Shown here piece after piece: positions 277 through 45,521 of a DNA stretch of 64,000 nucleotides. The notes beneath the pieces are model-generated. The model was not told where the DNA came from. It saw only the letters and a program-made list of their open reading frames with translations, and did no database searches. The stretch is from Flavobacteriales bacterium UBA4474 (GTDB lineage Bacteria; Bacteroidota; Bacteroidia; Flavobacteriales_D; Sanyastnellaceae), in contig DGOE01000041.1 in NCBI GenBank assembly GCA_002389295.1, forward strand, positions 15,080 through 79,079. The letters run 5' to 3'. Position numbers and translations under genes: made by a program. Each line of letters begins with the position of its first letter. The stretch's first letter is position 1.

Positions 277-3200
277 TCAGTACTTGAGGGTTACGGTTCC
301 GGTGATGGGTTGAGCACCTGGCTCCACCGAAATCACATAATAATAATCGCTGGCGGGAAGCAATGCCCCATTGAAGGTGCCGTCCCACCAAGTGGTGCCA
401 GGCTTGGACCTGAAGATCAACTGGCCCCAACGGTTAAACACTTCCACCTCGCTCTGCGGGAAGAATTCAAGTCCGCCCACGACCCAACGGTCATTGATGC
501 CGTCGCCATTGGGCGTGATGGCATCTGCTATGAAGAGGCAATCTTCGGTGGGGTCAACTGTCGCCAGGAACCCGAGCGTGCACCCGATATTGTCGGTGAC
601 GGTGACGCTGTACACGTCCTCTGGCAACCCGATGGCGGTAGCCGTCGTTTGGCCACTGGCATCGCTCCATTCGTATTGGATGGGCAATTGCCCCCCTGTG
701 ACCGCTGCCGTGACTGTACCATCGGAAGTCTGCCAACACGTCACTGGGGTGGAGAAGATTTCGACCAGCATGTCGGTCACGATGTCCGCCTCGACCATGA
801 AACTGGAGTCAGCCGTGCACCCTGCGGTATCGGCGGCAGCGACGAAGTATTCCCCCTCGAAGAGGTTGAGCACATCCACGGATCCGCCTACGAATTCCCA
901 TGCGGTTTCTCCCGACCCTCCTACAGTGCCAATGATGGCCACGCCATCGTCCATTCCGGTGCAGGTCACATTCTGTACGGTGATGTCAAACAACAACGGA
1001 TCAGGCTCTTCGATTTCCACGGTCGCCGAATCCAAACAGCCGTTCTCATCACTGAGGTACAGCGGATAGACTCCCGCGCAGAGGTTGACCAACCCGCTCG
1101 GCACCACGGCAGTGGAATCACTCACACTGCCTTCGTAAAGTGAGAGCAGCCCTGTGCCGCCTGTGAATGCAACTTCGATGCCGCCTGTGCAGTCTCCCCC
1201 GCATTCCGGAAATACGGCGGTCAAGACGTCCAAATCCACCAATTCCGGTTCGGGAATTCCAATCTCCAAACTGTCGATGCAGCCCAGTGTGTCGCCGACC
1301 ACCAGCATCAAGGAGTCGGGTCCCAGGTTCGGCAGGGTGTCGGGCAGGTTGTAGAATACAAAGGGCGAGATGAGCTCGAGGTCTCCGCTGCCTCCAAGGG
1401 CATTGACCACCAGGATACCATCAGCCGCCCCCGTGCAGGAGATCGGGGTGATGGAGGGAATGATCTGGATGGGGGCCGGTTCTTCCACGGATACTTCGTA
1501 GAAGTCACTGGTGCACCCGATGCTGTCCTGCACCAAGACGTCATAATTGCCCGCAGGGACATTGAAACAACTGCCATCCCAACTTCCGGTGGGCAGCGGC
1601 ACCAGTTGAGGTGTCAATGGTCCTGTTCCGCCTTCGAGGTCTCCCACGCAGATTTGGCCACCTGCGCCGCCACTGCACGGCACGTTCGACGCGCTGAAAG
1701 TGAACAGGATGGTGTCGGGGCCCAAGATTTCCAGTGTGTCCGTCACCAGGCATTCGTTGCCGTCCTCGGTGATGTGGATGTAGGCGCCAGGACACAACTG
1801 ACCCGATATGACCGGTGTCCCATCGAGTTGGGCCGTGGTGATGATGTAGGGCAATTCACCCCCCTCCACATCGGCCAAAATGAGCCCATTGCAATCTCCT
1901 GCGCAGGCCACATCCGTAATGGCGTATTCCACTTGCAATCCTTCGGGCTCTTCGATGACCAAGGGCTCGGTGTAAGTGCAGCCATTGTCATCGGTGATGG
2001 TAAAGGTGTACGTGCCGCTGGGCAAGCCATCCTGTTCGAAGTCGATGTTGCCGTTGAAATCAATGGTCACGGCGAGTTCTGGCACTTCAAAAACCACATT
2101 ACCTGTGCCACCCGCAGCCGAAGCGCTGAAGCTGGCATCGCTGTATCCCGTGCAGCTCACTTCCGTGGAAGACACATCAAAGAAGAGCGGTTCCGGACAG
2201 GAAATCGTGACCGTTGTATCCACGGAGCAACCGACCTGATCGGTGACGGTCAGGGTGTAATCTCCATCTCCGCCAAAACAAGAAAGCGGGCCAAAACAGT
2301 CACTGGCGTTGGGCTCGAGGATCAAGCCAAGGGCATTGGAGGCCTGTGTGGTCAATCCGCCAGATCCTCCTACTGCGGTGAAGCACACCTCTGCTTGATC
2401 CAGGTCACCACAGATGTTGTCTTGGGTCAGCGTGGCTTCCAGCTGTATCTCGTCGGGAGAAAGAAAAGCAAACACACCGGTCGTGTCACGGCACGTGTTG
2501 CTGGAGAACGCCACGGTCTGGGCCGTATCGAACAGGGCGACGAAGTAATTGCCATCAGAGATGCCATCGAAAACGGGATCGCCGACCTGCTGCTGCATCA
2601 GCGTAGTGTCGGTGCCAGTGAACTGGTAGAGGCTGTACTCCACTGATGCAGTCAATGGCTGTGCGGGGTCGTTGGGCAAGACTTGGATGGTCGCCGTCTC
2701 CCCGAAGCATTCTATTTCTTCCATTACCGTGTACTGCGGGTCCACCATGGGCTCGCAGAAGTCTCCCACTTCTACATAGCCATCCGTGCAGTACGGCGTG
2801 ACAGTCGTTCCAAGCTGCATCGCCACGCAGACCTGGAATGAAAAGGACTCACAGGTGGTGATTTGTCCAATCAGGGCGCGGCCATTTTGCACCGTCGCGT
2901 GAACGGGGTCGGCGTTGGTGACCACCAGTCCCCCTTGGACCACCTCGTCTGAACAACTGTCGAACCCCAAGGGAAACATGCCCGCTGTCTCAAATACGGT
3001 GGTACCCGGCGTTCCTTGCGCAATGTGGGTCGTCCACCACGTGTCGTAAACGATGTGAGGATCGATGGCGATGAACCCCGCATTGACGTTTGACCCCGAG
3101 TTGTATCCGTTCGGGACAAACAGAGACTCATAATTGTAGCAACCGCACGGAGCGTCAAAACCGAATCCGGGAATGACTGGAACGCTCACGTCGTCCGCCG

Positions 3201-3411
3201 CCGGGCCCAGCATCACGTGATCATCTGAGGGCAGGACAGCGTACAATCTGTAGCGGCGAAACCCAGCTGGCACATCGGCAACACCGTCATACAGTACAGT
3301 GTCCAGGACAACGTCCACCTCCAGATCATAGTTGAGCTGGGCATGAATACTGTCTCCGAGCGACAGCCCGAAAACAAGTGTGAGTAAGAGATAACTGATG
3401 TGTGCTCTCAT
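277..3411 (-). CDS. SprB-repeat cell-surface protein with type-B T9SS (gliding-motility/CHU_C) C-terminal domain
   Basis: 1044-aa ORF with signal peptide MRAHISYLLLTLVFGLSLGDSIHAQ. Many SprB-type repeats (C.G..DG.i.v...GG.g...y.w, e.g. VTCWQTSDGTVTAAVTGGQLPIQYEW). The C-terminus ITPNGDGINDRWVVGGLEFFPQSEVEVFNRWGQLIF...YYYV is the classic type-B sorting domain. Confidence 0.9.
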   Translation of the reverse strand: MRAHISYLLLTLVFGLSLGDSIHAQLNYDLEVDVVLDTVLYDGVADVPAGFRRYRLYAVLPSDDHVMLGPAADDVSVPVIPGFGFDAPCGCYNYESLFVPNGYNSGSNVNAGFIAIDPHIVYDTWWTTHIAQGTPGTTVFETAGMFPLGFDSCSDEVVQGGLVVTNADPVHATVQNGRALIGQITTCESFSFQVCVAMQLGTTVTPYCTDGYVEVGDFCEPMVDPQYTVMEEIECFGETATIQVLPNDPAQPLTASVEYSLYQFTGTDTTLMQQQVGDPVFDGISDGNYFVALFDTAQTVAFSSNTCRDTTGVFAFLSPDEIQLEATLTQDNICGDLDQAEVCFTAVGGSGGLTTQASNALGLILEPNASDCFGPLSCFGGDGDYTLTVTDQVGCSVDTTVTISCPEPLFFDVSSTEVSCTGYSDASFSASAAGGTGNVVFEVPELAVTIDFNGNIDFEQDGLPSGTYTFTITDDNGCTYTEPLVIEEPEGLQVEYAITDVACAGDCNGLILADVEGGELPYIITTAQLDGTPVISGQLCPGAYIHITEDGNECLVTDTLEILGPDTILFTFSASNVPCSGGAGGQICVGDLEGGTGPLTPQLVPLPTGSWDGSCFNVPAGNYDVLVQDSIGCTSDFYEVSVEEPAPIQIIPSITPISCTGAADGILVVNALGGSGDLELISPFVFYNLPDTLPNLGPDSLMLVVGDTLGCIDSLEIGIPEPELVDLDVLTAVFPECGGDCTGGIEVAFTGGTGLLSLYEGSVSDSTAVVPSGLVNLCAGVYPLYLSDENGCLDSATVEIEEPDPLLFDITVQNVTCTGMDDGVAIIGTVGGSGETAWEFVGGSVDVLNLFEGEYFVAAADTAGCTADSSFMVEADIVTDMLVEIFSTPVTCWQTSDGTVTAAVTGGQLPIQYEWSDASGQTTATAIGLPEDVYSVTVTDNIGCTLGFLATVDPTEDCLFIADAITPNGDGINDRWVVGGLEFFPQSEVEVFNRWGQLIFRSKPGTTWWDGTFNGALLPASDYYYVISVEPGAQPITGTVTLKY

Positions 3412-5302: not shown

Positions 5303-8300
5303 ATGTTATCCATTGCCAGATTAACGCTGCTCCGCAGTGCAGGTTTGATTGTTGCTTTTTTCTGCTTGTCCTCTTGGAGCGTTGAAGCCCAAGACACCAT
5401 ACCCGCAGCGTGGGCAGGCTCACTTTCCGGAAGCCAAATCGCCAGCTTTGAGGTGACCGCAGGATGCAGTCTGCTCTCGTTTGACATCAGCTTGGACATC
5501 GTGGCCCCCGGCAGCAATTGGGCAGGTGACATGGCCCTGGCCATTACCGCGCCCAATGGCAACCGCATCGAGGTGGGTGGCTACAATGTCAATTTCGGGT
5601 ACGTGGATGCAGGAGGCTGGCCCAGCGGGTGGAACACCAATGCAGACGGAAACTTCACCGCATCCATGACCGGGCTTGACCAATACAACCTCGCGGGGTC
5701 TGGATGCTGGCTGATTGAAGTCATGAACGCGTGGAACTCAGCCGCATCGAGCGACTATGTGATGTCCTTGGATCTGATTGGCTTGTGCAGTGAAGGAGAC
5801 TTGGAGGGCTGCACGGATCCAGCGGCGCTCAACTACAACGCTTGTGCCATGCTGGATGATGGCAGCTGCCTCTACCCCCCGCTTTCCGCCAACTTCGATT
5901 GGACATCGAGCTGTGGATTGCCCCTCACGGCCAATTTCAGTGACGAGAGCATGGGCAATGTGGTCACCTATGATTGGAGTTTTGCTGGAGGCACCCCTGC
6001 GACCAGCAGCTCGGCTTCTCCGGAGGTGGTTTGGGACGCCCCTGGAACTTTTGAAGTCACATTGACCGTGGGTGACGGCGCCGGAGGCACTTCCACCAAC
6101 ATGGGCACCATTGACGTAGGAGAAAACCTCCACCGCCTCGAAATCGACATTGTGCCCGATGGGTTTCCCCAAGAAACCTCTTTCGTCGTGGTCACCGAAG
6201 CCGGGGACACCTTGCACACCGGAGGTGCGGAAGGCCTCGATGTCTGTATCCCCGATGGGTGTGTTTCCGTGTGGATGTACGATTCGGGTGCAGATGGCTT
6301 TTCCATCGGTGGCACCTACCAAATTCGCTACGACGGCACTGTCCTGCGCGATGGTGAACACTTCGATGCGGCCCTGCTGACCCTGGTGGGTTGTCCCGAA
6401 GGAAGCAGCTGTGACAGCGCCATCGACTTGTTGTTGCCCCCCAACGGAGACACCTTGTCCTTTGTGGCCCCCTTGTCCAGCACTTGGTATTACTTCCAAG
6501 TCGATACCACGGGACAGTACCGCTTTTCCACCTGCGACTTGACCGGCTGCGACACGCGGATCCACCTGTATGATTACTGCGACATGGCGGTCTTTGAGAC
6601 TTCTTCGGAGGCCTTCATCACCATGTCGGATGACGATTGTGGCCTCCAAAGTGTGGTCACACCGGTGCTCATCTCGGGAGAGACCATCTACATCCAAATC
6701 GAAGGAGACGGCGATTGCAATGCCGGGGCCGGCGGCGTGCCTTTTGAAGCCCACTATTTGGGTGGCATCCCGGGCTGCATGAACATCGAAGCCTGCAACT
6801 ACCTGCCCATCGCGACCACCGCCGACACCTGCTATCTGGCCGGCGATCCGGAATGTCCCAACATCGGCCCCGACCTCATCATCAATGGTCCCCGGGCTTA
6901 CAGCACACTGGAGATGACGCTGGAAAACAGCTCCGACGGCTGCATGATTGAAGAGGGCTGTATTCAGGGGTATGGCTCGCGCGAAATCGTGCGCTTCGAC
7001 ACCGAAATCGCCAACATCGGCACCGAAGACTATTTCATCGGCGCCCCTTCGGCCCAGCCCGACCAATTCGAGTGGGACGCCTGTCACAACCACTACCACT
7101 ATGAGGGTTATGCCGAATACGCATTGTACGATGCCAGTGGCTCCCCCCTCCCCACCATCGGCTTCAAAAACGGTTTCTGTGTATTGGACCTGGGCAGTTG
7201 CAACTACGGCGGCGGTCCCCAGAAGTACACCTGCTCCAACATGGGCATCACCGCAGGTTGTCAGGACATATACTCCCGCTACCTCGATTGCCAATGGGTC
7301 GACATCACCGACCTCGACGCTGGGGACTACACGTTGGTCATTCGCGTGAATTGGGACTACAGCCCCGACGCCAATGGCAGCTACGAGTTGAACTACGCCA
7401 ACAATGCTGTGGCCGTCTGCTTCTCATTTGAGCGCGACGCCAGCGGTACCGCCATCAACTTCGCCAAGTATGAAGACTGCCCTGTACCGGTGGACTGCCT
7501 GGGACACCCCTTCGGCTCGGAGGAACCAGACTGTGCCGGCAACTGTCCGGGCTTTCTGGTCAAGGGCGATCTGGACCAAGACGGCGAAGTCGACGCGGAC
7601 GACCCCTTGCTCTATGCAGACTTGCTCATTGACGGGGTCGAATCTTCAGCGCCCTGCGTGGACCTCAATGGCGACGGCACGCTGAGCATCACCGATGTTG
7701 CGCTGGCCGCAGACTGCGCCCATTTGGGACACAACCACCTCGGAGACAATGGTGTGGAAGACCACTGCGATTGGAATGGGCCCTTGCTGGTGCCGGATGA
7801 GGAGGTCATGTTCTCCTTGATCCTTCCGCACGAAGACTCCAGTTTTGTCGACCTGTATGTCCACAACCCACAGACCTGGCTGAGCGGTTGGTCGGTGCAA
7901 CTCGACGGCGCTGCCTTCACGGCATTGACGCCCTTGTTTGATACCACGGGCTTTTCCCACTACTTCCACCTGTCCGCTTCGGGCATGGTCTTTGGCGTGG
8001 CCCTCGAGGACAGTTTGGTGCACAAGAGCACCCTTCCACAACCCCTCGTTCGCTTGCACTTTACAGATGCAGCGGCAGAAATCTGCATGATCGGCAATGC
8101 CGAAGTCACGAACCACGACCGCCACAACGTTGCGGCTTCCGCCACAGGTTGCATAGTCCCGGGCACCTTCTGCCTCGGCGACATCAACGACAACGGCATC
8201 CGCGATGTGGGCGACCTGCTGGTGGCCCTCGGGATTTTTGGTTGCAATACGGATTGCGGACCGGCCGATGTGGATGGGGACGGGATTGTAGGGGTCAATG

Positions 8301-8344
8301 ACCTTTTGATCATGCTCGGCCTCTTTGGAGACCCCTGTCAATAA
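5303..8344 (+). CDS. Secreted multidomain lysyl-oxidase-like copper amine oxidase with tandem dockerin-like C-terminal tail
   Basis: Signal peptide. PKD-like segment (NFSDESMGNVVTYDWSFAGG...FEVTLTVGD). PPC-like segment (SCDSAIDL...WYYFQVDTTGQYRFSTC...DTRIHLYDYC). Two GC..ACNY modules. LOX catalytic domain, internal dockerin-like pair, and a C-terminal double tail. No T9SS CTD. Confidence 0.85.
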   Translation: MLSIARLTLLRSAGLIVAFFCLSSWSVEAQDTIPAAWAGSLSGSQIASFEVTAGCSLLSFDISLDIVAPGSNWAGDMALAITAPNGNRIEVGGYNVNFGYVDAGGWPSGWNTNADGNFTASMTGLDQYNLAGSGCWLIEVMNAWNSAASSDYVMSLDLIGLCSEGDLEGCTDPAALNYNACAMLDDGSCLYPPLSANFDWTSSCGLPLTANFSDESMGNVVTYDWSFAGGTPATSSSASPEVVWDAPGTFEVTLTVGDGAGGTSTNMGTIDVGENLHRLEIDIVPDGFPQETSFVVVTEAGDTLHTGGAEGLDVCIPDGCVSVWMYDSGADGFSIGGTYQIRYDGTVLRDGEHFDAALLTLVGCPEGSSCDSAIDLLLPPNGDTLSFVAPLSSTWYYFQVDTTGQYRFSTCDLTGCDTRIHLYDYCDMAVFETSSEAFITMSDDDCGLQSVVTPVLISGETIYIQIEGDGDCNAGAGGVPFEAHYLGGIPGCMNIEACNYLPIATTADTCYLAGDPECPNIGPDLIINGPRAYSTLEMTLENSSDGCMIEEGCIQGYGSREIVRFDTEIANIGTEDYFIGAPSAQPDQFEWDACHNHYHYEGYAEYALYDASGSPLPTIGFKNGFCVLDLGSCNYGGGPQKYTCSNMGITAGCQDIYSRYLDCQWVDITDLDAGDYTLVIRVNWDYSPDANGSYELNYANNAVAVCFSFERDASGTAINFAKYEDCPVPVDCLGHPFGSEEPDCAGNCPGFLVKGDLDQDGEVDADDPLLYADLLIDGVESSAPCVDLNGDGTLSITDVALAADCAHLGHNHLGDNGVEDHCDWNGPLLVPDEEVMFSLILPHEDSSFVDLYVHNPQTWLSGWSVQLDGAAFTALTPLFDTTGFSHYFHLSASGMVFGVALEDSLVHKSTLPQPLVRLHFTDAAAEICMIGNAEVTNHDRHNVAASATGCIVPGTFCLGDINDNGIRDVGDLLVALGIFGCNTDCGPADVDGDGIVGVNDLLIMLGLFGDPCQ
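6868..7432 (+). other. Lysyl oxidase (LOX)-like catalytic domain
   Basis: PDLIINGPRAY...CMIEEGC...REIVRFDTEIANIGTEDYF...FEWDACHNHYHYEGY...IGFKNGFCVLDLGSC...GCQDIYSRYLDCQWVDITD...NYANN aligns motif-for-motif with animal LOX: WEWHSCHQHYH copper site, HKASFCLED lysine, GCYDTY tyrosine and DCQWIDITD. Confidence 0.8.
7529..7723 (+). other. Internal two-segment dockerin-like (EF-hand-like Ca-binding) module
   Basis: DCAGNCPGFLVKGDLDQDGEVDADDPLLYADLLIDG....APCVDLNGDGTLSITDVALAADCAH contains two D-x-[DN]-x-DG-x-[VIL]-x-x-x-D loop-helix segments. Confidence 0.55.
8168..8341 (+). other. Tandem Cys-bracketed dockerin-like C-terminal tail (two copies)
   Basis: FCLGDINDNGIRDVGDLLVALGIFGCNTDCGPADVDGDGIVGVNDLLIMLGLFGDPCQ* runs up to the stop codon. 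Confidence 0.7.
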
Positions 8345-8422
8345 TCCACAGGGCTTGGCGGCCAGAGGGTGCCATCAGCCTGCCCGGCTGGGCTAACTTT
8401 GGAGCGCTCCATTGAAACGCGC

Positions 8423-11400
8423 ATGGAATCTTCACAACCGAAAGACGCATCCACCTCCGCGGCCACGCGATCCGGACATCCCATCCGCATCGTTACGGCA
8501 GCTTCTCTCTTTGATGGCCATGACGCGGCCATCAACATCATGCGGCGGATCCTGCAGCGCTCGGGATGCGAGATCATCCACTTGGGCCATGACCGCTCTG
8601 TCGACGAAGTGGTGAACTGTGCCATTGAGGAGGACGCACAAGCCATTGCCATGACCTCCTACCAAGGGGGCCACATGGAGTACTTCAAGTACATGAAGGA
8701 CCTCCTGGACGAGCGCGGCGCTGGCCACATCCGCATTTTTGGCGGCGGCGGCGGCACCATCCTCCCCACGGAAATCGCGGAACTGCAGGAATACGGTATC
8801 GAGCGGATTTACCACCCTGATGACGGGCGGGAATTGGGCCTGCAGGGCATGATCGACGATGTCATCCAACGCTGCGACTTCCCCGTTGTGGGCGCGCCTT
8901 TTGGAGAGGCCGACCGGCTGAGTGAAAAGCGCCCTGGAGACCTTGCGCGGCTGATTACGGCTGCAGAGGTGGGCGCCAAGCCGTATGCCGATATCCTCGA
9001 CGGCATCAGGACAGCCGGCCAAACAGCCAACGTCCCTGTGCTGGGCATCACCGGTACCGGTGGAGCCGGTAAGAGCTCTCTGGTCGATGAACTGGTCCGC
9101 CGGTTTCTCATCGATTTTGACGACAAGCGCATGGCCATTGTGTCTGTGGACCCCTCCAAGCGCAAAACGGGCGGCGCCTTGCTCGGCGACCGCATCCGAA
9201 TGAATGCCATCGCTTCGGGGCGGGTGTACATGCGCTCTTTGGCCACGCGTCAATCCAACCTGGCACTCAGCCGCCATGTGGGCGATGCCCTCCAGATCCT
9301 GAAGGCGGCTGGATTCGACCTCATCGTGCTCGAGACCTCCGGCATTGGCCAAAGCGATACGGAGATCATGGAGCACAGCGATGTGGCCCTGTATGTCATG
9401 ACCCCTGAATTCGGGGCGGCCACGCAGCTCGAAAAGATCGACATGCTCGACTTCGCCGACGTGGTGGCGATCAACAAGTTTGACAAGCGCGGCGGCGCCG
9501 ATGCCCTGCGCGACGTGCGCAAGCAATACAAGCGCAACCACGAACTGTGGGAGGCCCAAGACGGGGACCTGCCCATCTTTGGCACCATTGCTTCGCAGTT
9601 CAACGACCCCGGAACCCACCGTTTGTACCGGACATTGATGAACGCCCTCTCGGAAAAGACCGGAGCTGTGCTGGCGAGCACCTTTGGTGCCGACGCCGGA
9701 GAGAGCGAAAAGGTTCATGTGATTCCGCCAAAACGGACGCGGTACTTGAGCGAAATCGCCGATGGCATCCGTGCCTACAACGATTGGACGGATGCCCAAG
9801 CTGCGCTTGCCGGAAAACTGCAGGCCCTGCGGATCGCACGCGCTGAACTGGCCGATACGGATGCCGATACGCTCCTGGCGGCGAAGGCGGAAGGGCTTAC
9901 ACGGGAACTTGACCCCAAGAACCTGCACTGGCTCGAAACATGGCCGGAGGAGGCCGACCGCTATCGCAATGCGGAGTACATCTTCGAAGTGCGGGGCAAG
10001 GAAATCCGGATCCCTACGACCACCAAGAGCCTGAGTCACCAGGACATCCCCAAGGTCAGCGTGCCTCGGCTCACCGGATGGCGCGACCTGTTGCGTTGGG
10101 GCCTGCAGGAAAACGTGCCCGGCGCTTTTCCCTTTACAGCCGGTATCTATCCCTTCAAGCGCCAAGGCGAAGACCCCACCCGCATGTTTGCCGGCGAGGG
10201 CGGACCGGAGCGAACGAATCGGCGGTTCCACTATGTCTCTGGAGACATGCCGGCCAAACGGCTGTCTACAGCGTTTGATTCCGTCACCCTTTACGGGCGC
10301 GATCCGGACCTGCGGCCCGATATCCATGGAAAGGTGGGCAACTCCGGGGTGAGCGTTTGTTCCCTCGACGATGCCAAGCGCCTTTACAGCGGTTTTGACC
10401 TCTGCGACCCCTCTACCAGTGTGTCGATGACCATCAACGGTCCGGCGCCCATGGTGTTGGCCTTCTTCCTCAACGCCGCCATCGACCAGCGCTGCGAGAA
10501 GTACATCCGTGCGCATGGATTGGAAGCCGAGGTGGAAGCCGTGCTCAAGGCCCGATGGGACGACCAGGGCCTCTCCCGCCCGGTCTACCGCGGTGCCTTG
10601 CCCGAGGGCAATGACGGATTGGGGCTGCTCCTGCTCGGGTGCACCGGTGATGAAGTGCTCGATGCCAAAACCTACGCCCCTTTGGCTGCCGAAGCGCTGT
10701 CCCAGGTGCGCGGCACTGTGCAGGCCGACATCCTCAAGGAGGACCAGGCCCAAAACACCTGCATTTTCTCTACCGAGTTTGCCTTGCGGCTCATGGGCGA
10801 TGTGCAGTCTTACTTTATTGACCAGAAAGTCCGCAATTTCTATTCGGTCTCGATTTCTGGCTACCACATCGCAGAGGCGGGGGCCAACCCCATCACGCAG
10901 CTCGCCTTTACCCTAGCCAACGGCTTTACTTATGTGGAGTATTACCTGAGCCGGGGCATGGACATCAACCACTTTGGACCCAACCTCAGCTTCTTCTTCT
11001 CCAATGGCATCGATCCGGAATATGCGGTGATTGGCCGCGTCGCCCGGCGCATTTGGGCCAAGGCCATGGACAAGAAGTACGGTGCAGATGAGCGGGCCCA
11101 AAAGCTCAAGTACCACATCCAGACCAGTGGCCGCTCCCTGCACGCGCAAGAAATCGACTTCAACGATATCCGCACGACGCTGCAGGCCCTCTACGCCATT
11201 TACGACAACTGCAACTCCCTGCACACCAACGCCTTTGACGAGGCCATCACCACACCTACCGAGGGCAGCGTCCGGCGGGCCATTGCCATTCAGCTCATCA
11301 TCAACCGGGAGTTGGGGCTGGCCAAAAACGAAAACCCGCTGCAGGGCGCCTTCATCATCGAGGAACTCACCGACCTGGTCGAGGAAGCGGTGATGGTGGA

Positions 11401-11809
11401 ATTCGATAGACTCACCGAACGCGGCGGGGTGCTCGGCGCCATGGAAACCATGTACCAGCGCAGCCGCATCCAAGAGGAGAGCCTGCACTATGAGACGCTG
11501 AAGCACACGGGCGAGTACCCCATCATCGGGGTGAATACCTTCCTGTCCAAGGAGGGCTCCCCCACCATTGTGCCGGGCGAAGTCATCCGCGCCACGCCGG
11601 AAGAGAAGCAGGGCCAAATCGACGGTCTTGCGGCGCTGCACAGCGCCCATGGCGACCGGACGGAAGCTGCCCTGGAAAATGTGCGGCGCATTGCTGTAGA
11701 ACACGGCAATCTGTTTGCCGAGTTGATGGAAGCGGTGAAGTCCTGCTCGCTGGGGCAATTGACCGAAGCGATGTTTGAAGTGGGCGGCGCCTACCGCCGC
11801 AACATGTGA
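8423..11809 (+). CDS. icmF: Fused isobutyryl-CoA mutase IcmF (B12-binding domain + MeaB-like GTPase + mutase catalytic domain)
   Basis: N-terminal B12 domain ([22 protein letters not shown], DxHxxG). P-loop G-protein ([24 protein letters not shown]). Large C-terminal methylmalonyl/isobutyryl-CoA-mutase-type TIM barrel. About 1128 aa from the ATG at 8423 (MESSQPKD). Confidence 0.9.
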
Positions 11810-13485: not shown

Positions 13486-13929
13486 ATGTCCCCCACCCTC
13501 CGCAATATTCTCGCCGGCCTGGCCGGTGCCATCGCCAGTCAACCCGCCAATATGCTGTTGTTGGCGCCCATGGCCCGCCTCACCGGAGCACCTGAGCTGC
13601 CCCAGCCCCCTGAGGGCATGTCGATGCTGGAAGTCCATGAATTCTACGCGCCGCTCATCGCCCAATTCGAGCCGGTTCACTTCGTGGGTCCCATTGTCGC
13701 CCATTGGAACGGGGCATTCATCGGCGCCCTGGTCGCCGCATTGCTCATGAGTGGAAAAAAAGGAACCGTCCCTTTGATTGTGGCCAGCTTGTCCCTTGTG
13801 GGCGGAATCATGATGGCCTTCCTCACCTCCAGTCAGCCCGTTTGGTCCATGGCGCTTGACCTTGCCGGCTATCTGCCCATGGGGTGGCTGGGTTGGCAAC
13901 TGGCACTCCGCTTGCGCCAGAAGCGCTGA
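13486..13929 (+). CDS. Small integral membrane protein, unknown function
   Basis: 147-aa ORF with about 4 hydrophobic helices (ILAGLAGAIASQ, GAFIGALVAALLM, LIVASLSLVGGIMMAFL, LAGYLPMGWLGW). The antisense 166-aa ORF looks like junk. Confidence 0.5.
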   Translation: MSPTLRNILAGLAGAIASQPANMLLLAPMARLTGAPELPQPPEGMSMLEVHEFYAPLIAQFEPVHFVGPIVAHWNGAFIGALVAALLMSGKKGTVPLIVASLSLVGGIMMAFLTSSQPVWSMALDLAGYLPMGWLGWQLALRLRQKR

Positions 13930-13973
13930 ATGGGGTAGACAGAACCGGGCGCCAGGGCCGACCTTTGCAGCGG

Positions 13974-14831
13974 ATGTCACGTGGCTTGGTCTTTATGTTG
14001 CAGTCGGTGGTGCTCTACACCTCCGCCAACCTGCTGGTCAAGGCCCTCGCGGTCCTTCCGACGCCGCAATTGGTCTTCCTGCGCAGCGTCATCAGCCTGT
14101 TTTTTTGCGTCATCTGGCTCTGGAGAAAGGGCCAACCGCTGTGGGGTCACAACCGCAAATGGCTGGTCGTCCGGGGCGTGATGGGCATGATCGGGTTGAC
14201 CTTGTTTTTCCATATCATCCGGCACATCCCGCTGGCCAGCGCCACGGTCATCCAGTACCTCTCCCCCATTTTCACGGTGCTGCTGGCCATCCTGTTTGAC
14301 GGTCAGCGGATCAAGACCCACCGCTGGGTCTACTTCGCCGCAGCCTTTGGCGGCGTGCTGATGGTGAAGGGCTTTGATCCACGTGTCTCTTGGCTTTACC
14401 TGGCCATGGGCGTGGGCAGCGCTTTGGCCGCCGCTGTGGCCTACCTCGCCACCATCAAGTGCCGCGAGACCGACAGCCCCGTCGGGATTGTCGCCTATTT
14501 CCACCTGATTGCCACCCCCATCATGGGCACGTGGAGCGCCGCGGTGTGGCACCCCATGACGGCCAGCCAATGGGGCATGGCCCTGGGAATCGGGGGGCTT
14601 TCGTTGCTCGCTCAGGTGGCGATGACCAAGGCTTTGCACCTGGAAGATGCAGCCCGCGTGATGCCGTTCAAATATTTCGGCGCCTTGCTCGCACTGGGGC
14701 TGGCTTGGATCTTGTTCGATGAAAAAATCACCGGCTGGGCCTTGGTCGGCATCGGCGTGGTCTTGGCCGCTGTGACCGCCAACACCATCGCCGGAAAGCG
14801 CAAGCCGCCCGCAGTGGTCAGCGCACCGTGA
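13974..14831 (+). CDS. DMT-superfamily (EamA-like) transporter
   Basis: About 10 TM helices in two EamA-type halves. Start placed at MSRGLVFMLQSVVLYTSANLLVKAL (13974) because the upstream ORF extension overlaps the previous gene. Confidence 0.8.
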   Translation: MSRGLVFMLQSVVLYTSANLLVKALAVLPTPQLVFLRSVISLFFCVIWLWRKGQPLWGHNRKWLVVRGVMGMIGLTLFFHIIRHIPLASATVIQYLSPIFTVLLAILFDGQRIKTHRWVYFAAAFGGVLMVKGFDPRVSWLYLAMGVGSALAAAVAYLATIKCRETDSPVGIVAYFHLIATPIMGTWSAAVWHPMTASQWGMALGIGGLSLLAQVAMTKALHLEDAARVMPFKYFGALLALGLAWILFDEKITGWALVGIGVVLAAVTANTIAGKRKPPAVVSAP

Positions 14832-17256
14832 CGCGGCGCGTGTGCTCCAATGTGGCGCCTCCGGGAACCGTCTGCACCACTTGCAACAGGTAAGCTCCAG
14901 GCACGCGGCCTGCCGTTGAAAGGGCCATTTGACGCCCTCCCGTCCATTGTTCGCGGGCAACGATGCGCCCGGTCAAATCCAACCAACGTACCGCTGCGCC
15001 GTCCAACACTCCCCCGCCAAAGGACAACCGCAGCGGCTCTCCGGCCTGCACGGGGTTGGGGCTCACCGAGAACGTGGGCCCTGCCACGATGCCGCCGATG
15101 CCGTTGACTGTGGCACAGGGGTCTACGAGGTAAGGCACTGCGTTTTGGTACATGTCGTTCACGACTTCGGTGATGCCGTTGATGCAAAGCTCCGTCTCGG
15201 GTGCCTGGGTCCAGTAAATCCGGCACAAAGGCGTCCACTCATAGTGCTTGGACATGGAGGCGTTGTCATAGCTCAAACCAATGAGGGTATTGCCGCCCAA
15301 CGCATGCTCCGGTTGGATCATGTACTCCAGCGGATCGGTCAGGCTGACAGCCTGCTGAATGCCACAGCTGACATCGAACTGGTAACCGAGGATGCGGTTG
15401 TGCGGATTGAGCACCTGGACGTCAAAGAAGCCCTGCGCCCAGTTGACCTCCCCAAGCTTGAACCACACGCTGTCATAGGGATTCACCACATGGGGTGCCG
15501 GAAACTGGCACTTGTCATGGAATCCTGAGCTGTCGGGGTTGCTGTGGGCAATGTCCCAATATTGGCAACGCGCCATCAAGGCCGCATCGGATACCGTCAG
15601 CTCTCCATCCTGGTCCAGGTCGTTGCATGGTGCGGCTTGAAGGTCATTGCCCAAGATGCCATCCACATAGGCCTCCGCATCGGTGAGGTCCTGGTCGGCA
15701 TCGGCGTCGAGGTCCCCCATGAGGGCCGTGCCGCCGCAATCCCCCATGCAATCCATCTGTGCTGTTCCGTAAGGCTCTCCCGTGCAATCCACCAGTTGGT
15801 CGCAGTCGTCCCAAACATCCACCTGCAGTTCACCCGAGGTGCGGTCCATGTTGATGCAGACCACGCCCCAGTTGTTTTCGTAGTCGTTCTCCTGGCGGCC
15901 CAGCGCATCGGGGCTGTAGTCCCAATTCACCCGTACCACGAGGTGGTACAGGCCATCTGGAATGCCCGTTACATCGATCCATTGGCAGGAAAGCCCTGCG
16001 CCGTAGATGTCACCGCAATGGGCCGAAATGCCCATGTTGCTGCAGCCGTATTGGAAGGTGCCGCCGTCGCTGCATTCGAGGTCCATGACGCAGAATCCGT
16101 TTTTGAACCCGATGGGCAACATCTGGCCCTCCATGGTGAAGAGGTCGTATTTCGCATAGCCCTTGTAGTGCCAGTGGTTGTGACACTCTCCCCATTCGAA
16201 CTGCTGGGTCGAATCGCTCTGGGCGGTGGTGCCGATGTAGTAATCGATGTCGCCGATGTTTTTGATGTGGGTGGTAAAACGCACCAGTTCCCGCTCGCCG
16301 TAGCCGTTGAGACAACCTTCCACGATGTAGCAGTTGTTTTCGTCGACCATCATGGTCTCAGCCTGCAAGCTGTTCTCGATGGCGCTCTCCACCACCATGA
16401 GGTCAGGCCCCGTGCAGAGTGGATCGCCCGGGTAAACACAGCTTCCGTTGTCCAATTCCGCTGCCGGGTTGTAGTTGCACGCTTCGTCATCGGTACATCC
16501 CTCTGGTGGTCCGACATAGTTCAAGCTCCAATCGAAACCGCTGCAGTCACCCGTTAGGTTGGCAAAACGCACCCAATAGGTCACGCCACCCTCGAGCAAG
16601 ACGAGCAGCTGCGCACTTTCCACATTGTCTTCGCACCCCCCTTGATTGTCATCGTAGTAGATCGACCCTTCATTGGTGTCGTCGAAGTTGTTCATGTTGC
16701 AGTAATCGTAGATCCACAGGCGCGTATCGCACCCCGACCCACAGCTGGTCAATGCGTACATGCCGTTCTGCCCCGGCGTAAACGTCCACCACTCCACATT
16801 TTCTCCCGCCGTCACCTGCAGGGGGTCTTCTCCAAGCTCCAGGAGGATGGCCTCGTTGCAGGTCCAGCCTGGAGGGCAATCAATGGCGTGGCTTTGTCCG
16901 TAACCGTAGTTTCCGCTGCCTTGGACGAGCAATTCACCGTCCAACAACACCTGGTAATATGCGTCACCGACAAGGCCATCACCGTAGGTGTCGTTCATGG
17001 TGAACACCATGCAGTCCTCCCAATCTGCCGTGTCCACGCAGAATGTGTAGAGCGTATCGTTGGCGTCGGCCACATCTGCCTCGAGCAGGATGTCTCCCGA
17101 GCCATTGGTCAGGTCCCAGCTCATTTCATAAGGCCACGCATCGGGTGCGATGATGACGGAAAAGGTGTGCTGATCGTCTGCACAGTCCTGCCCGCAGATG
17201 GCAGAACAAAAAAGAAATGCAGCAATGAGTAAGGGAACCCGGGTGGCGAATGACAT
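14818..17256 (-). CDS. Secreted lysyl-oxidase-like copper amine oxidase with type-A T9SS C-terminal domain
   Basis: Paralogue of 5303..8344 with the same module order: signal peptide, D.W.YE.SW...DTYGDG module, PPC-like segment, GCTDDEACNYNPAAELDNGSCVY, LOX domain, dockerin-like pair, conserved beta-rich region. It ends in a Por-type CTD (FSVSPNPVQAGEPLRLSF...GAYLLQVV...RRVTVR). Confidence 0.85.
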   Translation of the reverse strand: MSFATRVPLLIAAFLFCSAICGQDCADDQHTFSVIIAPDAWPYEMSWDLTNGSGDILLEADVADANDTLYTFCVDTADWEDCMVFTMNDTYGDGLVGDAYYQVLLDGELLVQGSGNYGYGQSHAIDCPPGWTCNEAILLELGEDPLQVTAGENVEWWTFTPGQNGMYALTSCGSGCDTRLWIYDYCNMNNFDDTNEGSIYYDDNQGGCEDNVESAQLLVLLEGGVTYWVRFANLTGDCSGFDWSLNYVGPPEGCTDDEACNYNPAAELDNGSCVYPGDPLCTGPDLMVVESAIENSLQAETMMVDENNCYIVEGCLNGYGERELVRFTTHIKNIGDIDYYIGTTAQSDSTQQFEWGECHNHWHYKGYAKYDLFTMEGQMLPIGFKNGFCVMDLECSDGGTFQYGCSNMGISAHCGDIYGAGLSCQWIDVTGIPDGLYHLVVRVNWDYSPDALGRQENDYENNWGVVCINMDRTSGELQVDVWDDCDQLVDCTGEPYGTAQMDCMGDCGGTALMGDLDADADQDLTDAEAYVDGILGNDLQAAPCNDLDQDGELTVSDAALMARCQYWDIAHSNPDSSGFHDKCQFPAPHVVNPYDSVWFKLGEVNWAQGFFDVQVLNPHNRILGYQFDVSCGIQQAVSLTDPLEYMIQPEHALGGNTLIGLSYDNASMSKHYEWTPLCRIYWTQAPETELCINGITEVVNDMYQNAVPYLVDPCATVNGIGGIVAGPTFSVSPNPVQAGEPLRLSFGGGVLDGAAVRWLDLTGRIVAREQWTGGRQMALSTAGRVPGAYLLQVVQTVPGGATLEHTRRVTVR
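15844..16410 (-). other. Lysyl oxidase (LOX)-like catalytic domain
   Basis: PDLMVVESA...CYIVEGC...RELVRFTTHIKNIGDIDYY...FEWGECHNHWHYKGY...IGFKNGFCVMDLECS...HCGDIYGAGLSCQWIDVTG...DYENN. The His triad, the lysine and the tyrosine are all conserved. Confidence 0.8.
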
Positions 17257-20942: not shown

Positions 20943-22865
20943 TCAATTCAGCTGCAGACGGACTGCTGTCTCTGTGCCCTCGGCCACCCAGAGGTATTGG
21001 CCGGCGCTGAGACCGGAAGCAGACAATTCGAACTGCAGGGCACCCTGCAATGCCCGCGCTTGACCCTTTTCAATGATGCGGCCTGAGGCATCGCGCAAGG
21101 ACCAACTCCCCGCCCAATCCGCAGGCACCTGGCTCCACATGATGGTCCAACTTCCTCCCGGCGCAGCTGGATTGGGAAAAGCCTGCACTGAAGGTGCCGC
21201 GCTGTCCCATTCGCCCAAGCCGAGGGTGCAATCGAAAACGGTGACGAAAATGGCATCGGCATGCGAACAGCCAAATGCGTTGGATGCTTCGACGACAATG
21301 GGATAGGTTCCCGGTCCCAAATCAGCCCCATTTATGATGATGAATTGGTCTGCACTGCCGTTGCTCCAGAGGTACTCCAGGCCAGCAGGCGCAGAAAGCA
21401 CCAGCTGTTGGTCTTCGCAAATGGTGGTGTCGGGGCCCAGGGTGAAGGCAAAGGCGTCGTCCTCAGCCTGGAGGTCAAACTGGATTTCCTCTATACACCC
21501 GTTGCCGTCCTCCATGACCACTGTGAAGGCCCCTTCGGCCATGTCGTCAATGGCTGGCCCCGTGCCAAGTTCACCGAGTTCACCGGACCATGTGATGGAA
21601 TAAGGCTCCGTACCTCCGCTCACCGCCAAGGCGGCACTGCCGTTGGGCTGGTCGGGGCAACCGGGTGGCACCAGATCAAGGTCCAGGGAAATGGGGTCGG
21701 GTTGGGTCAAGGTCACCGCGTGGGTCAACGTGTTGCCACAGTTGGTCACGATCACGGCAGAATAGGTGCCCCCGCTCAAACCAGAAATCTGCTGGCCCTC
21801 GCCGGAAAATCCATCGGGGCCGATCCAAGCCGCAGTGAAATCCGCCCCCATGCCGATGGGATTCAACACGATCGTTCCGTTGGGGTCCTCCTCCTTGCCC
21901 AGTGGGCAACCAAGGCCTCCGGTGACGCTGGTCATCTCTTCGGCCAGGTCCGAACTCGTCTCGACCACGATTCCGACTGTTCCCCGCGCATTTTGCCACC
22001 CATCCACTTGGATGAGGTAGGTGGCGCCGCTGTCCAGACAGCCCGTCCACATTGAACTGGCATAATAGGCTCCTGAACCGCAGCCTCCGGGCATGTCGTC
22101 ATTGGCCCCCACGAGGGTGAATGTGGTGAAATCGCTGCAGTCTTCCGCCTTCCACAAGGCTATCTGCGTATCGAAATCGGTGGTGTCCGTGCACGCCGTC
22201 ACCAGGCAGTTGCCCGCGGTGGCCGTAAAGGACAGCCAGGCCGACCCCGTCACACCGCCTTCGCACCATCCGCCATTGATTTGGCAAGCATACACGCCGG
22301 GAAAATTGGGTGCACCAGGCTCGCCATAAGCGGCCGTGCAGCTGTCGTTTGAGACGATGGCCATGGGGCCGTCCACCACGACTTCTTCGGCACCACAGGG
22401 CGAATCATAAGCCGGTCCAGACATTTCGAAGGGATTGAAATCCCAGGTGTTTCCAAAGCCAGACCCGGGGAAGCTGTTGGTCAGCACGCCTTCATTGTAC
22501 ACTTCGAAATAAGTGCCCCCGTCCCCGTAGCTGTCCACGTGGTGCAGGGTCAGCACCTCATCCGGTGTGCCGCACAAGGTGTCCAGGATAAAGGTGGCAT
22601 TCGAAGCGTATTCGCCTGCGGGCGCCCCGGGCAGTCCCTCTCCGTCGCAGCCTACACCGGCCGCATTGCCTCCCCAATACAGGGCATCCACACCACACGC
22701 ACCGCCTTCTGGCGTGATCTCCCAATACATCTCATAGCCCCAGGCATCTGTATACAGGCGCAATTCAAACGGTGATTGGCCTTCAGGACAGTCTTGACTG
22801 AACGCATTCATGCCAGCTGTGCAGGACAGCATCAGCAAAAAGACCACTGGGGTTGAGGATTTCAT
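20943..22865 (-). CDS. Secreted SprB-repeat protein with type-A T9SS C-terminal domain
   Basis: True start [24 protein letters not shown] at 22865; the 811-aa ORF extension would overlap yaaA. N-terminal D.WGYEMYW...DSYGDGG module, PPC-like segment, SprB repeat ([30 protein letters not shown]). CTD is [14 protein letters not shown]...GQYLWV...VRLQLN. Confidence 0.85.
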
Positions 22866-22916
22866 GGCCGAAAAATAGGGCATTGCGCACATGGCATTCC
22901 GTAGCTTTGCGGGCCC

Positions 22917-23687
22917 ATGCGCTTTTTGCTTTCTCCTGCAAAGACATTTAGGACCGAAGCCCTGCCTGTGGTGGCCGGTGCCAGCCAACCTGTTTTTGTT
23001 GATCGGGCAGCCACCATCATGGAGGACTTGTCTCTTGTAAAGGAGCGGGACCTTATGGCGCACATGGACATCAGTGAGGCGTTGGCAGAAGAAACCGCTG
23101 CGCGGCACCAAGAATGGGGCACCCCCTTCCACCCCGGAAATGCCCGAGCGGCCATCCATTCTTTTCACGGTGAGGTCTACCGCGCTTTGGGTGCAGACCG
23201 CTGGAATGCCAACAACTTGGACCAAGCGCAAAGCATGATGCGCATCATCAGCGGTCTGTATGGCTTGCTCAGGCCATTGGACCTGATGCAGGAATACCGC
23301 TTGGAAATGGGCAGCCGCTGGTCTCCAAATGGAAAAGACAACCTCTATGCCTATTGGGGAACCGCGCTCGCCGACCATTTAGCGGCTGAAAGTGACGGTC
23401 CCATTGTCAACTTGGCCAGTCAGGAATATTTCAAAGCAGTGGACCACCCTTCGCTCAAGGGTAAGTTCATTCATATCCATTTCAAGGAGCAGCGAGGCGA
23501 CACCTTCAAAATGATCGGCACTTATGCCAAAACAGCGCGGGGCCGCATGGCGCGTTTCTTGGTGCAGGATGGCATCTCTTCACCCGAGGACATTCAGCAT
23601 TTCAATGAAGATGGTTATGCCTTTAACCCCAGCCTGAGTGGAGAGGACGCCTTTACTTTCACACGACATCATACACCCAACCCATGA
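22917..23687 (+). CDS. yaaA: Peroxide stress protein YaaA (UPF0246/DUF328)
   Basis: MRFLLSPAKTF start, GEVYRAL, RIISGLYGLLRPLDLMQEYRLEM, and NLASQEYFKAV. These are the hallmark YaaA motifs. Confidence 0.9.
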   Translation: MRFLLSPAKTFRTEALPVVAGASQPVFVDRAATIMEDLSLVKERDLMAHMDISEALAEETAARHQEWGTPFHPGNARAAIHSFHGEVYRALGADRWNANNLDQAQSMMRIISGLYGLLRPLDLMQEYRLEMGSRWSPNGKDNLYAYWGTALADHLAAESDGPIVNLASQEYFKAVDHPSLKGKFIHIHFKEQRGDTFKMIGTYAKTARGRMARFLVQDGISSPEDIQHFNEDGYAFNPSLSGEDAFTFTRHHTPNP

Positions 23688-24456: not shown

Positions 24457-24597
24457 ATCAGCCTTTTCGTTGGCTGATTATACAGTACATGTGGATTTAA
24501 TGTAAGTGGTTGAAAAACAATAACAAGACACATTTCTCAGGCAAAATGTAACCCCAACTTGCGCATCGGAGTAAGGGTGCCAAACAACCTGCCCATC

Positions 24598-39632: not shown

Positions 39633-39817
39633 TGGGTTTGGGTTACAGTTTGGTTCTTTCCAAGAACGAGCAATATAGTCCGAGAAGGTGTACTTCATAC
39701 ACCAAGTGCATATTCTTGGGAATAACTTGGGTATTATCAGGAAGCAATGGCCATTTAATGGTTGTGTACCATCCGTCAATACAGCGGCACAGTCTTTTTC
39801 GAAATGGACCTCGACGT

Positions 39818-45451: not shown

Positions 45452-45521
45452 GGTAACCTGAAGATACGAACCAACCCCTGCGCGAGCCGCAGACCAAGAG
45501 GTGATTTTTGTCACTGCTGTC

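Follow-up and report, generated by a model that had tools for sequence, protein, structure and literature searches.

Two multi-module lysyl-oxidase-family proteins with apparently intact copper and quinone sites in a Flavobacteriales genome

We analysed a 64,000-nucleotide stretch of DNA (the window) from Flavobacteriales bacterium UBA4474 (contig DGOE01000041.1, positions 15,080 to 79,079; assembly GCA_002389295.1), in which two open reading frames (ORFs), ORF A and ORF B, encode large proteins with a domain of the lysyl oxidase (LOX) family (Table 1). A sequence-only reading, made without database searches, had proposed two lysyl-oxidase-like proteins within one 12-kb stretch; both ORFs are present at the coordinates it gave, the spacing is correct, and the window contains only two LOX cores, those of ORF A and ORF B. 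The lysyl oxidase identity that it assigned is also borne out, since both ORFs score far above the gathering score (20.4) of the Pfam model Lysyl_oxidase (PF01186): ORF A with 109.7 bits (E 1.9e-31, residues 555-710) and ORF B with 103.8 bits (E 1.2e-29, residues 318-467). The same model is matched by all 60 of the 60 B-type homologues scanned. A phmmer search of the PDB returned human LOXL2 (5ZE3) as the sole match to either protein (E 2.5e-21 for ORF A, 1.5e-19 for ORF B), and a profile of 22 related cores reached 5ZE3 at E 1.9e-47. We modelled both proteins with AlphaFold2. The ORF B model, built with a 77-sequence alignment, has a predicted local distance difference test score (pLDDT) of 90.1 and a predicted template modelling score (pTM) of 0.80; the ORF A model has a pLDDT of 80.6, with low confidence in the first 165 and the last 57 residues. 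In Foldseek searches of the PDB, LOXL2, on which the sequence-only reading had suggested superposing the models, is the top structural match for both: 5ZE3_A for ORF B (E 1.5e-14, 224 columns, root-mean-square deviation (rmsd) 4.0, 26% identity) and 5ZE3 for ORF A (E 1.5e-12). We conclude that ORF A and ORF B contain genuine lysyl-oxidase-family (PF01186) domains with a LOXL2-type fold.

Table 1. Coordinates of the features discussed (positions are those of the window; LTQ, lysine tyrosylquinone; T9SS, type IX secretion system)
Feature	Position (nt)	Strand	Residues (aa) or length	Remarks
ORF A	5303..8344	+	1013 aa	Open reading frame without internal stops; secreted multi-module LOX-family protein, long subfamily
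ORF A signal peptide	5303..5389	+	~1-29	Ends ...SWSVEA/QDT; hydrophobic N-terminus, helix at 6-20 in model; predicted cleavage site
ORF A-specific N-terminal beta domain	5390..5797	+	30-165	Fold uncertain; pLDDT ~40-55
ORF A Cys mini-module	5810-5869	+
ORF A PKD domain	5885..6112	+	~195-270	Pfam PKD_4 E 2.8e-11, PKD E 1.3e-8 (202-267)
ORF A two beta-sandwiches common to ORF B	6125..6766	+	275-362; 366-488	'ETSW/GDG'; PPC/collagen-binding-domain-like
ORF A LOX catalytic domain	6860..7477	+	520-725
ORF A copper His triad	7082-7102	+	594-600	CHNHYHY
ORF A LTQ lysine motif	7157-7180	+	619-626	IGFKNGFC
ORF A LTQ tyrosine motif	7256-7273	+	652-657	GCQDIY
ORF A CQW motif	7289-7309	+		CQWVDIT
ORF A Cys-rich linker and internal dockerin-like double EF-hand	7478..7726	+	726-808	Helices at 766-776 and 796-808 in model
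ORF A cohesin-like beta-sandwich	7736..8143	+	812-947	Fold match
ORF A C-terminal dockerin-like tail	8171..8341	+	957-1013	57 aa
ORF B	14818..17256	-	812 aa	Open frame without internal stops; LOX-family protein, common ~800-aa T9SS-cargo architecture
ORF B beta-sandwiches	16507..17172	-	29-125; 130-250	'ETSW/GDG'; PPC/collagen-binding-domain-like; confident model
ORF B Cys mini-module	16438-16497	-
ORF B LOX catalytic domain	15802..16419	-	280-485
ORF B copper His triad	16185-16165	-	358-364	CHNHWHY
ORF B LTQ lysine motif		-	382-389	IGFKNGFC
ORF B LTQ tyrosine motif		-	413-418	HCGDIY
ORF B CQW motif				CQWIDVT
ORF B Cys-rich linker, dockerin-like module and cohesin-like sandwich	15109..15801	-	513-566 (dockerin-like); 590-716 (cohesin-like)
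ORF B C-terminal 7-strand beta-sandwich	14821..15075	-	728-812	Probable T9SS type A sorting domain
SprB-repeat protein	277..3411	-	1044 aa	CHU_C type B sorting domain
IcmF-like fused gene	8369..11809	+		B12-binding, MeaB GTPase and methylmalonyl-CoA mutase
EamA transporter ORF	13884..14831			Convergent with ORF B
Second SprB-type ORF	20943..23378	-		Sub-threshold SprB-repeat match
Secreted M43 (pappalysin-like) metallopeptidase	24559..28191	+	1210 aa	Long C-terminal extensions with Cys mini-module
Cys mini-modules of M43 peptidase ORF	26722-26781, 27256-27315, 27790-27849	+		Three copies
ORF with plastocyanin/azurin-like copper-binding domain	34572..39779	-	1735 aa	Also CBM48/AMPK1_CBM, CBM20 and pullulanase X25
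Cys mini-module of ORF 43709..45514	44231-44290	-

We mapped the catalytic residues through sequence alignments to 5ZE3, taking the LOXL2 crystal-structure paper as the residue reference (PMC5899467). The LOXL2 Cu/Zn ligands His626, His628 and His630 correspond to His595, His597 and His599 of ORF A (nt 7085-7099) and to His359, His361 and His363 of ORF B (nt 16182-16168). Of the two residues that form the LTQ cofactor, LOXL2 Lys653 corresponds to ORF A Lys622 (nt 7166-7168) and ORF B Lys385 (nt 16104-16102), and Tyr689 to ORF A Tyr657 (nt 7271-7273) and ORF B Tyr418 (nt 16005-16003). In the precursor structure of LOXL2 this Lys and Tyr lie 16.6 A apart. Nine of the ten disulfide cysteines of the LOXL2 catalytic domain (C573, C579, C625, C657, C663, C673, C685, C695 and C732) have an aligned Cys in both proteins: C547, C553, C594, C626, C633, C644, C653, C663 and C706 in ORF A, and C309, C315, C358, C389, C395, C405, C414, C424 and C467 in ORF B. 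The tenth, C746, which is the partner of the last disulfide Cys, lies outside the alignments, and its counterpart is assigned tentatively. At the calcium site, D524, L525, E695, N700 and N701 of ORF A align with LOXL2 D549, L550, E722, N727 and N728; four of the six site residues are kept in both ORFs, and the position of LOXL2 Asp724 is Asp in ORF B and Asn in ORF A. The position of human LOX His289 is Asp in ORF A and Gly in ORF B. Across 155 related cores aligned with MAFFT, the three copper His and the LTQ Tyr are present in every sequence and the LTQ Lys in 154; the seven of the nine aligned Cys columns that were counted are kept in 148-155 cores. The active-site columns are likewise invariant among the 77 homologues of the ORF B alignment. 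Because these residues align with LOXL2 and are conserved in the 155 cores, the comparison indicates that the copper-site His, the LTQ-forming Lys and Tyr and the disulfide cysteines are intact in both ORFs, as the sequence-only reading had held. Its motifs are all found where it placed them, with one small deviation from the pattern it gave: the tyrosine motif of ORF B has His, not Gly, before the Cys.

The resemblance between the two proteins extends well past the LOX core, given that residues 271-942 of ORF A align with residues 24-705 of ORF B at 36% identity over ~700 aa. ORF B consists, in order, of a signal peptide, an 'ETSW/GDG' sandwich, a PPC-like sandwich, a Cys mini-module, the LOX domain, a linker, a dockerin-like module, a cohesin-like module and a C-terminal sandwich. 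The two N-terminal sandwiches have conserved columns in the 77-sequence alignment, and the model of ORF B matches the collagenase ColG (5iku; E 1.9e-5, prob 1.00). Clostridial collagenase collagen-binding domains have the PPC-type jelly-roll fold. The mini-module that precedes the LOX domain is ~20 aa long (CTDxxACNYNPxAxxDNGSC). Beyond the LOX domain, the model shows helices at residues 524-535 and 555-566 and then a beta-sandwich; Foldseek matches the cohesin of 2w1n (E 4.7e-8), and Pfam Dockerin_1 is found at E <= 0.001 in 10 of 60 ORF B homologues. Foldseek also matched ORF B to the copper chaperone-like CopC 5icu (91 columns, TMt 0.58, 25% identity, E 8.5e-5). This match may reflect no more than a generic Ig-like sandwich.

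ORF A differs from ORF B at both ends. In front it has an extra N-terminal beta domain, a further Cys mini-module and a PKD domain. The beta domain has no counterpart in ORF B, and its sole Pfam match is a weak one to Invasin_D3 (E 0.0016), below the cut-off. The pair of sandwiches that follows the PKD domain is confidently modelled and aligns with residues 24-250 of ORF B; its structural matches include the ColH collagen-binding domain 3jqw (TMt 0.62, prob 1.00) and the tandem domains of ColG (5iku). The internal module after the LOX domain matches Dockerin_1 at E 0.0015-0.008 (16.8-19.1 bits against a gathering score of 22.9), and the next sandwich matches cohesin 5nrm_A (TMt 0.55, rmsd 4.3, 141 columns, prob 1.00). 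At the C-terminus, a 57-aa tail takes the place of the last sandwich of ORF B. It has two D-x-[ND]-x-[DN]-G loops with a helix after each and matches NCBIfam dockerin_GC (NF041540) over the full length of the model (E 9.4e-4, 19.5 bits against a cut-off of 29). Given scores below the cut-offs despite duplicated loops and paired helices, we call these modules dockerin-like and do not file them as members of the dockerin families. Whole-protein NCBIfam scans of ORF A and ORF B gave no matches; Pfam searches of the flanking segments at E up to 5 left the N-terminal modules and the tail of ORF B without a significant match, and they gave no PPC family match for the PPC-like modules and no sequence family match for the cohesin-like sandwich. 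Hence, among the accessory modules named by the sequence-only reading, PKD is confirmed, in ORF A only; the PPC-like modules hold at the level of fold, and the dockerin-like modules stay below cut-offs. The large, secreted, multi-module setting that it described for both LOX domains stands.

Both proteins begin with signal sequences, and their predicted mature N-termini start with Gln (VEA/QDT in ORF A, ICG/QDC in ORF B). A Gln at position +1 agrees with the 'Q-rule' of Bacteroidetes signal peptidase I. For the last step of secretion, the evidence on ORF B comes largely from its relatives. Its own tail matches the tail of a T9SS-dependent M36 peptidase weakly (E 0.041), and P0095, a relative that is 80% identical, has a weak TIGR04183 match (E 0.09). 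In the model, the tail forms the 7-strand sandwich that such a domain should have. Pfam Por_Secre_tail (PF18962) is found at the position of the tail in 55 of 60 aligned full-length homologues, and on this basis we accept the C-terminal sandwich of ORF B as probably a T9SS type A sorting domain. We also counted other T9SS cargo in the window (CHU_C, SprB) toward the secretion reading. The contrast drawn earlier between a dockerin-like end in ORF A and a T9SS C-terminal domain in ORF B is therefore supported, in the latter case through the homologues. ORF A and many of its orthologues lack a T9SS sorting domain and end in a conserved dockerin-like sequence, D-x-N-x-DG...DLLxFLxxFGxxC; among the best 80 relatives (numbered L001 onwards, each a locus or metagenome-assembled genome (MAG)), this tail is present in the A-type orthologues L011-L019, L021, L023-L025, L036 and L065.

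Orthologues of ORF A in L001-L010 are 74-83% identical and have no stop codons, and orthologues of ORF B in L001 and L003-L009 are 78-86% identical. The convergent arrangement of the pair, with ~9-kb spacing, is conserved in at least seven related genomes (L001, L003 and L005-L009). A neighbour-joining tree, drawn without support values, groups ORF A with long proteins (1,000-2,300 aa) in one clade and places ORF B in the main clade of ~800-aa proteins; in it, the Bacteroidota group stands apart from other bacterial LOX, from human LOXL2 and from an animal-type sequence, P0011. The ORF A clade appears as an older sister clade ending in the dockerin-like tail, and the comparison indicates that ORF A and ORF B are old paralogues from two old subfamilies. 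We considered recent local or tandem duplication and rejected it, since the two cores are ~49-50% identical and belong to different clades. Of the best 80 loci, 18 have the A-type gene next to a gene for an IcmF-like fused mutase, and 15 have it next to DUF3089; its retention there suggests stable chromosomal residence and vertical descent.

The sequence-only reading regarded LOX homologues outside animals as sporadic, and this does not hold. A word-indexed search returned 14 relatives and gave a false impression of rarity. An exhaustive HMMER search of 1.84 billion representatives of clusters at 50% identity found 2,920 at E <= 1e-3, 1,486 at E <= 1e-10 and 389 at E <= 1e-30, and when one genome of each GTDB species was scanned with a single peptide pattern, at least 588 relatives were confirmed. 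The best 80 of these are almost all MAGs of uncultured aquatic Flavobacteriales, Saprospiraceae and Chitinophagales, sampled in the sea, in estuaries and in lakes; the closest among the matches listed is L001, a Flavobacteriales MAG whose core is 95% identical. About half of the best 150 clusters have a length of 750-850 aa, and of those whose LOX core lies at residues ~250-490, most share the architecture of ORF B; some relatives exceed 2,000 aa. In the public assembly collection, 37 blocks on at least 22 contigs contain the identical ORF B sequence, which suggests an abundant environmental population as its source. The source records name ORF A 'PKD repeat protein' and ORF B 'hypothetical protein'; NCBI labels relatives 'lysyl oxidase family protein', and Bacteroidetes were among the five bacterial clades in which Grau-Bove et al. 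reported LOX in 2015 (PMC4448552). Almost all prokaryotic LOX known at the time of that survey were single-domain proteins (PMC4448552). Our literature search found no description of the multi-module T9SS-linked LOX architecture and no published pairing of a LOX domain with T9SS, cohesin or dockerin modules. We conclude that the family was already known in the phylum, and that what this analysis adds is the size of the clade, its conserved multi-module architecture with T9SS, cohesin-like and dockerin-like parts, and the conserved pair of paralogues. That few prokaryotic LOX have been characterised is correct: the only biochemical study that the search found is that of the archaeal HTU-LOX (PMC6452851).

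The neighbours of the two genes include a CHU_C/SprB T9SS cargo gene, DUF3089, the IcmF-like mutase, a sulfotransferase, a class IV aminotransferase, an EamA transporter, an S46 dipeptidyl-peptidase and a threonine-aldolase-like lyase. Only lineage-specific synteny with housekeeping genes (IcmF-like mutase, DUF3089, MsrB, UvrA, EamA and S46 peptidase) is conserved, and inference of function from operon structure was rejected for this reason. The S46 peptidase gene upstream of ORF B is not conserved beside B-type genes elsewhere. The adjacency of the IcmF-like gene to A-type LOX genes across Flavobacteriales is probably plain synteny and not a functional link. The 3' ends of ORF B and the EamA ORF overlap by 14 nt (14818-14831). 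In related loci (for example, L006:3329-4306), an ORF for a PorP/SprF-like membrane protein, so labelled from its N-terminal sequence alone, lies near the CHU_C/SprB gene. The Cys mini-module, ~20 aa with the pattern CTDxxACN[YF]xxxAxxDDGSC, recurs in four large secreted ORFs of the window; it has no Pfam match and may represent a type of linker or knot module, in surface proteins of Bacteroidota, that has yet to be described. Elsewhere in the window, one ORF joins a plastocyanin/azurin-like domain to many starch- or glycogen-binding modules, an unusual pairing.

We take ORF A and ORF B to be genuine LOX-family proteins that are very probably active extracellular copper/LTQ amine oxidases, and we rate this account as a whole as likely. 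Both would be exported through Sec and cut by signal peptidase I before the Gln of the predicted mature N-terminus. ORF B, to judge from its homologues, would then cross the outer membrane through the T9SS by means of its C-terminal sandwich and be released or anchored at the surface. If the chemistry is that of LOXL2, the three His would bind Cu(II), and the Tyr (A657, B418) would be oxidised and cross-link to the Lys (A622, B385), giving LTQ. By analogy with the archaeal and animal enzymes, primary amines would be converted to aldehydes with release of NH3 and H2O2; peptidyl lysine, at its epsilon-amino group, and possibly free amines are the candidate substrates. The N-terminal sandwiches, one of them with the collagen-binding/PPC fold, probably keep the enzyme attached to a substrate made of polymers or particles, and the dockerin-like and cohesin-like modules probably assemble proteins on the surface; more speculatively, a cohesin-like module, for instance the one in ORF B, may be the docking site for the tail of ORF A.

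Several observations weigh against this account. The C-terminal domain of ORF B has no significant match to a Pfam or NCBIfam T9SS sorting domain, and ORF A has no recognised route across the outer membrane. Every dockerin match falls under the curated cut-offs (Dockerin_1, PF00404, and dockerin_GC), and the cohesin and PPC assignments hold at the level of fold only. Neighbour clustering over the 80 loci and around a distant B-type gene found no family-wide partner (substrate, copper chaperone or maturation factor) adjoining the genes; they thus offer no clue to the substrate, and the role is a guess. Genes without such a partner are also consistent with self-processing LTQ biogenesis. The biochemistry of prokaryotic LOX found by our literature search concerns the archaeal HTU-LOX, with no member of the Bacteroidota clade. 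Finally, the selection estimates, which in themselves speak for the account, are approximate. In pairwise comparisons with four orthologues, the ratio of non-synonymous to synonymous substitution (dN/dS, omega) indicates that purifying selection is strongest, and dN lowest, in the LOX core relative to the flanking modules (dN 0.03-0.09; omega ~0.02-0.04), with dS saturated and the omega values hence rough.

The same selection estimates bear on whether the domain is catalytic at all. Binding-type beta-sandwiches lie all around the LOX core in very large surface proteins, as might be expected if it were a structural or binding module, or a pseudo-enzyme, in adhesin-like proteins. We regard this as very improbable, because the copper His, the LTQ Lys and Tyr and the calcium-site residues vary hardly or not at all across 155 diverse cores, and the core is the most constrained part of both genes; this is the pattern expected of an active site and not of a scaffold. 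Still less credible, to the point of being negligible, is the idea that the genes were recently acquired from an animal or some other eukaryote, or that they contaminate the assembly. In its favour, animals are the best-known carriers of LOX, and the possibility of horizontal transfer has been discussed for the family. Against it, the GC content of the genes is like that of the rest of the window, they lie among bacterial housekeeping genes, the A-type gene adjoins the IcmF-like gene in 18 of 80 loci across Flavobacteriales, and the pair is syntenic in at least seven MAGs. Moreover, the cores form a Bacteroidota clade apart from LOXL2 and P0011, and the His289 position holds Asp or Gly, not the His typical of animals. 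We therefore rejected a eukaryotic origin or contamination on GC content, context, synteny and the tree.

For active enzymes, the purpose of the reaction is harder to settle. The role that we favour, tentatively and at well below an even chance, is surface oxidation of amine-rich or proteinaceous organic matter to yield ammonium and reactive aldehydes. HTU-LOX is an active, broad-substrate amine oxidase sensitive to beta-aminopropionitrile, and its authors suggest a role in nitrogen availability (PMC6452851). The same chemistry could instead serve to make H2O2, with the proteins acting as surface-bound or secreted generators against competitors or prey, or in the control of dispersal of biofilms or aggregates, as for LodA/AlpP. 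LodA uses a protein-derived quinone to oxidise lysine at the epsilon-amine, and in marine bacteria the H2O2 that it makes acts in antimicrobial activity and in the differentiation of biofilms (PMC4699246). This precedent, in marine Marinomonas and Pseudoalteromonas, the extracellular nature of the proteins, their spread through aquatic particle-associated lineages and the frequent presence of several LOX paralogues per genome, as for lodA-like genes, speak for such a generator. Nevertheless, the proteins have no homology to LodA and a different fold, and their cofactor would be LTQ rather than cysteine tryptophylquinone (CTQ); no immunity or catalase gene is linked; and a diffusible oxidant needs neither binding modules nor surface anchoring. 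We rate it as rather unlikely. A somewhat smaller chance attaches to protein cross-linking, in which lysines of the organism's own surface layer, of matrix proteins or of captured polymers would become allysine and then covalent cross-links that harden a coat or attach cells to particles. The cross-linking of host, algal or own matrix that the sequence-only reading proposed is speculative. Cross-linking is the canonical function of the LOX family (PMC5899467, PMC4448552); in addition, an accessory module folds like a collagen-binding domain, and the presence of cohesin-like and dockerin-like modules hints at an organised assembly on the surface. Against this, no gene for a collagen-like, elastin-like or other candidate substrate is linked, Grau-Bove et al. 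judged cross-linking of bacterial collagen-like proteins unlikely (PMC4448552), and HTU-LOX is promiscuous toward small amines (PMC6452851). Within the favoured account, it is doubtful that ORF A and ORF B form a cohesin-dockerin-type surface assembly in which ORF B is anchored through the T9SS and ORF A is recruited by its tail.

Comparison with known systems places the pair as follows. With animal LOX (LOXL2, 5ZE3), ORF A and ORF B share the Pfam family, the fold, the CHxHxH copper motif and the LTQ Lys and Tyr; they differ in being only ~25% identical, in the Asp or Gly at the His289 position, and in having bacterial beta-sandwich, dockerin-like, cohesin-like and T9SS modules at their flanks in place of SRCR domains or a propeptide. 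With prokaryotic LOX, including HTU-LOX of Haloterrigena turkmenica, they share PF01186, the His triad and the LTQ residues (PMC4448552, PMC6452851), but nearly all prokaryotic proteins of the 2015 survey have a single domain, whereas ORF A and ORF B have 7-10 modules in 800-1000 aa and belong to a separate Bacteroidota clade. LodA/AlpP of marine Gammaproteobacteria resemble them in extracellular oxidation of the lysine epsilon-amine by a protein-derived quinone, in yielding aldehyde, NH3 and H2O2, and in occurring as several paralogues per genome; the fold is unrelated, the CTQ cofactor needs the flavoprotein LodB, and there is no copper site, so that the analogy is functional only. ORF B resembles T9SS cargo in its C-terminal beta-sandwich, which stands where most homologues have Por_Secre_tail. 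The double EF-hand dockerin-like modules and cohesin-fold sandwiches of both proteins recall non-cellulosomal cohesin and dockerin modules, in contrast to which they have no scaffoldin or glycoside hydrolase context and dockerin-like scores below thresholds.

The function of prokaryotic lysyl oxidases is still termed enigmatic (PMC6452851). The multi-module T9SS-linked clade in uncultured aquatic Bacteroidota, which spans hundreds of species genomes and has a conserved active site, may be the largest bacterial reservoir of the family, and its compact cores could be useful in soluble form for work on LTQ biogenesis, a problem posed by LOXL2. Provided that the enzymes do act at the cell surface, they would bear on the processing of protein and amines by major degraders of marine and freshwater organic matter, on extracellular fluxes of H2O2 and ammonium, and on the bacterial ancestry of the enzyme that cross-links the animal matrix. 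Should ORF A and ORF B in fact assemble with each other, abundant uncultured aquatic Flavobacteriales would display a multi-enzyme copper/quinone amine-oxidase complex, and extracellular oxidation of protein-bound lysine and other amines by this large family would regenerate ammonium and produce H2O2 in surface waters by a route that has so far gone unrecognised.

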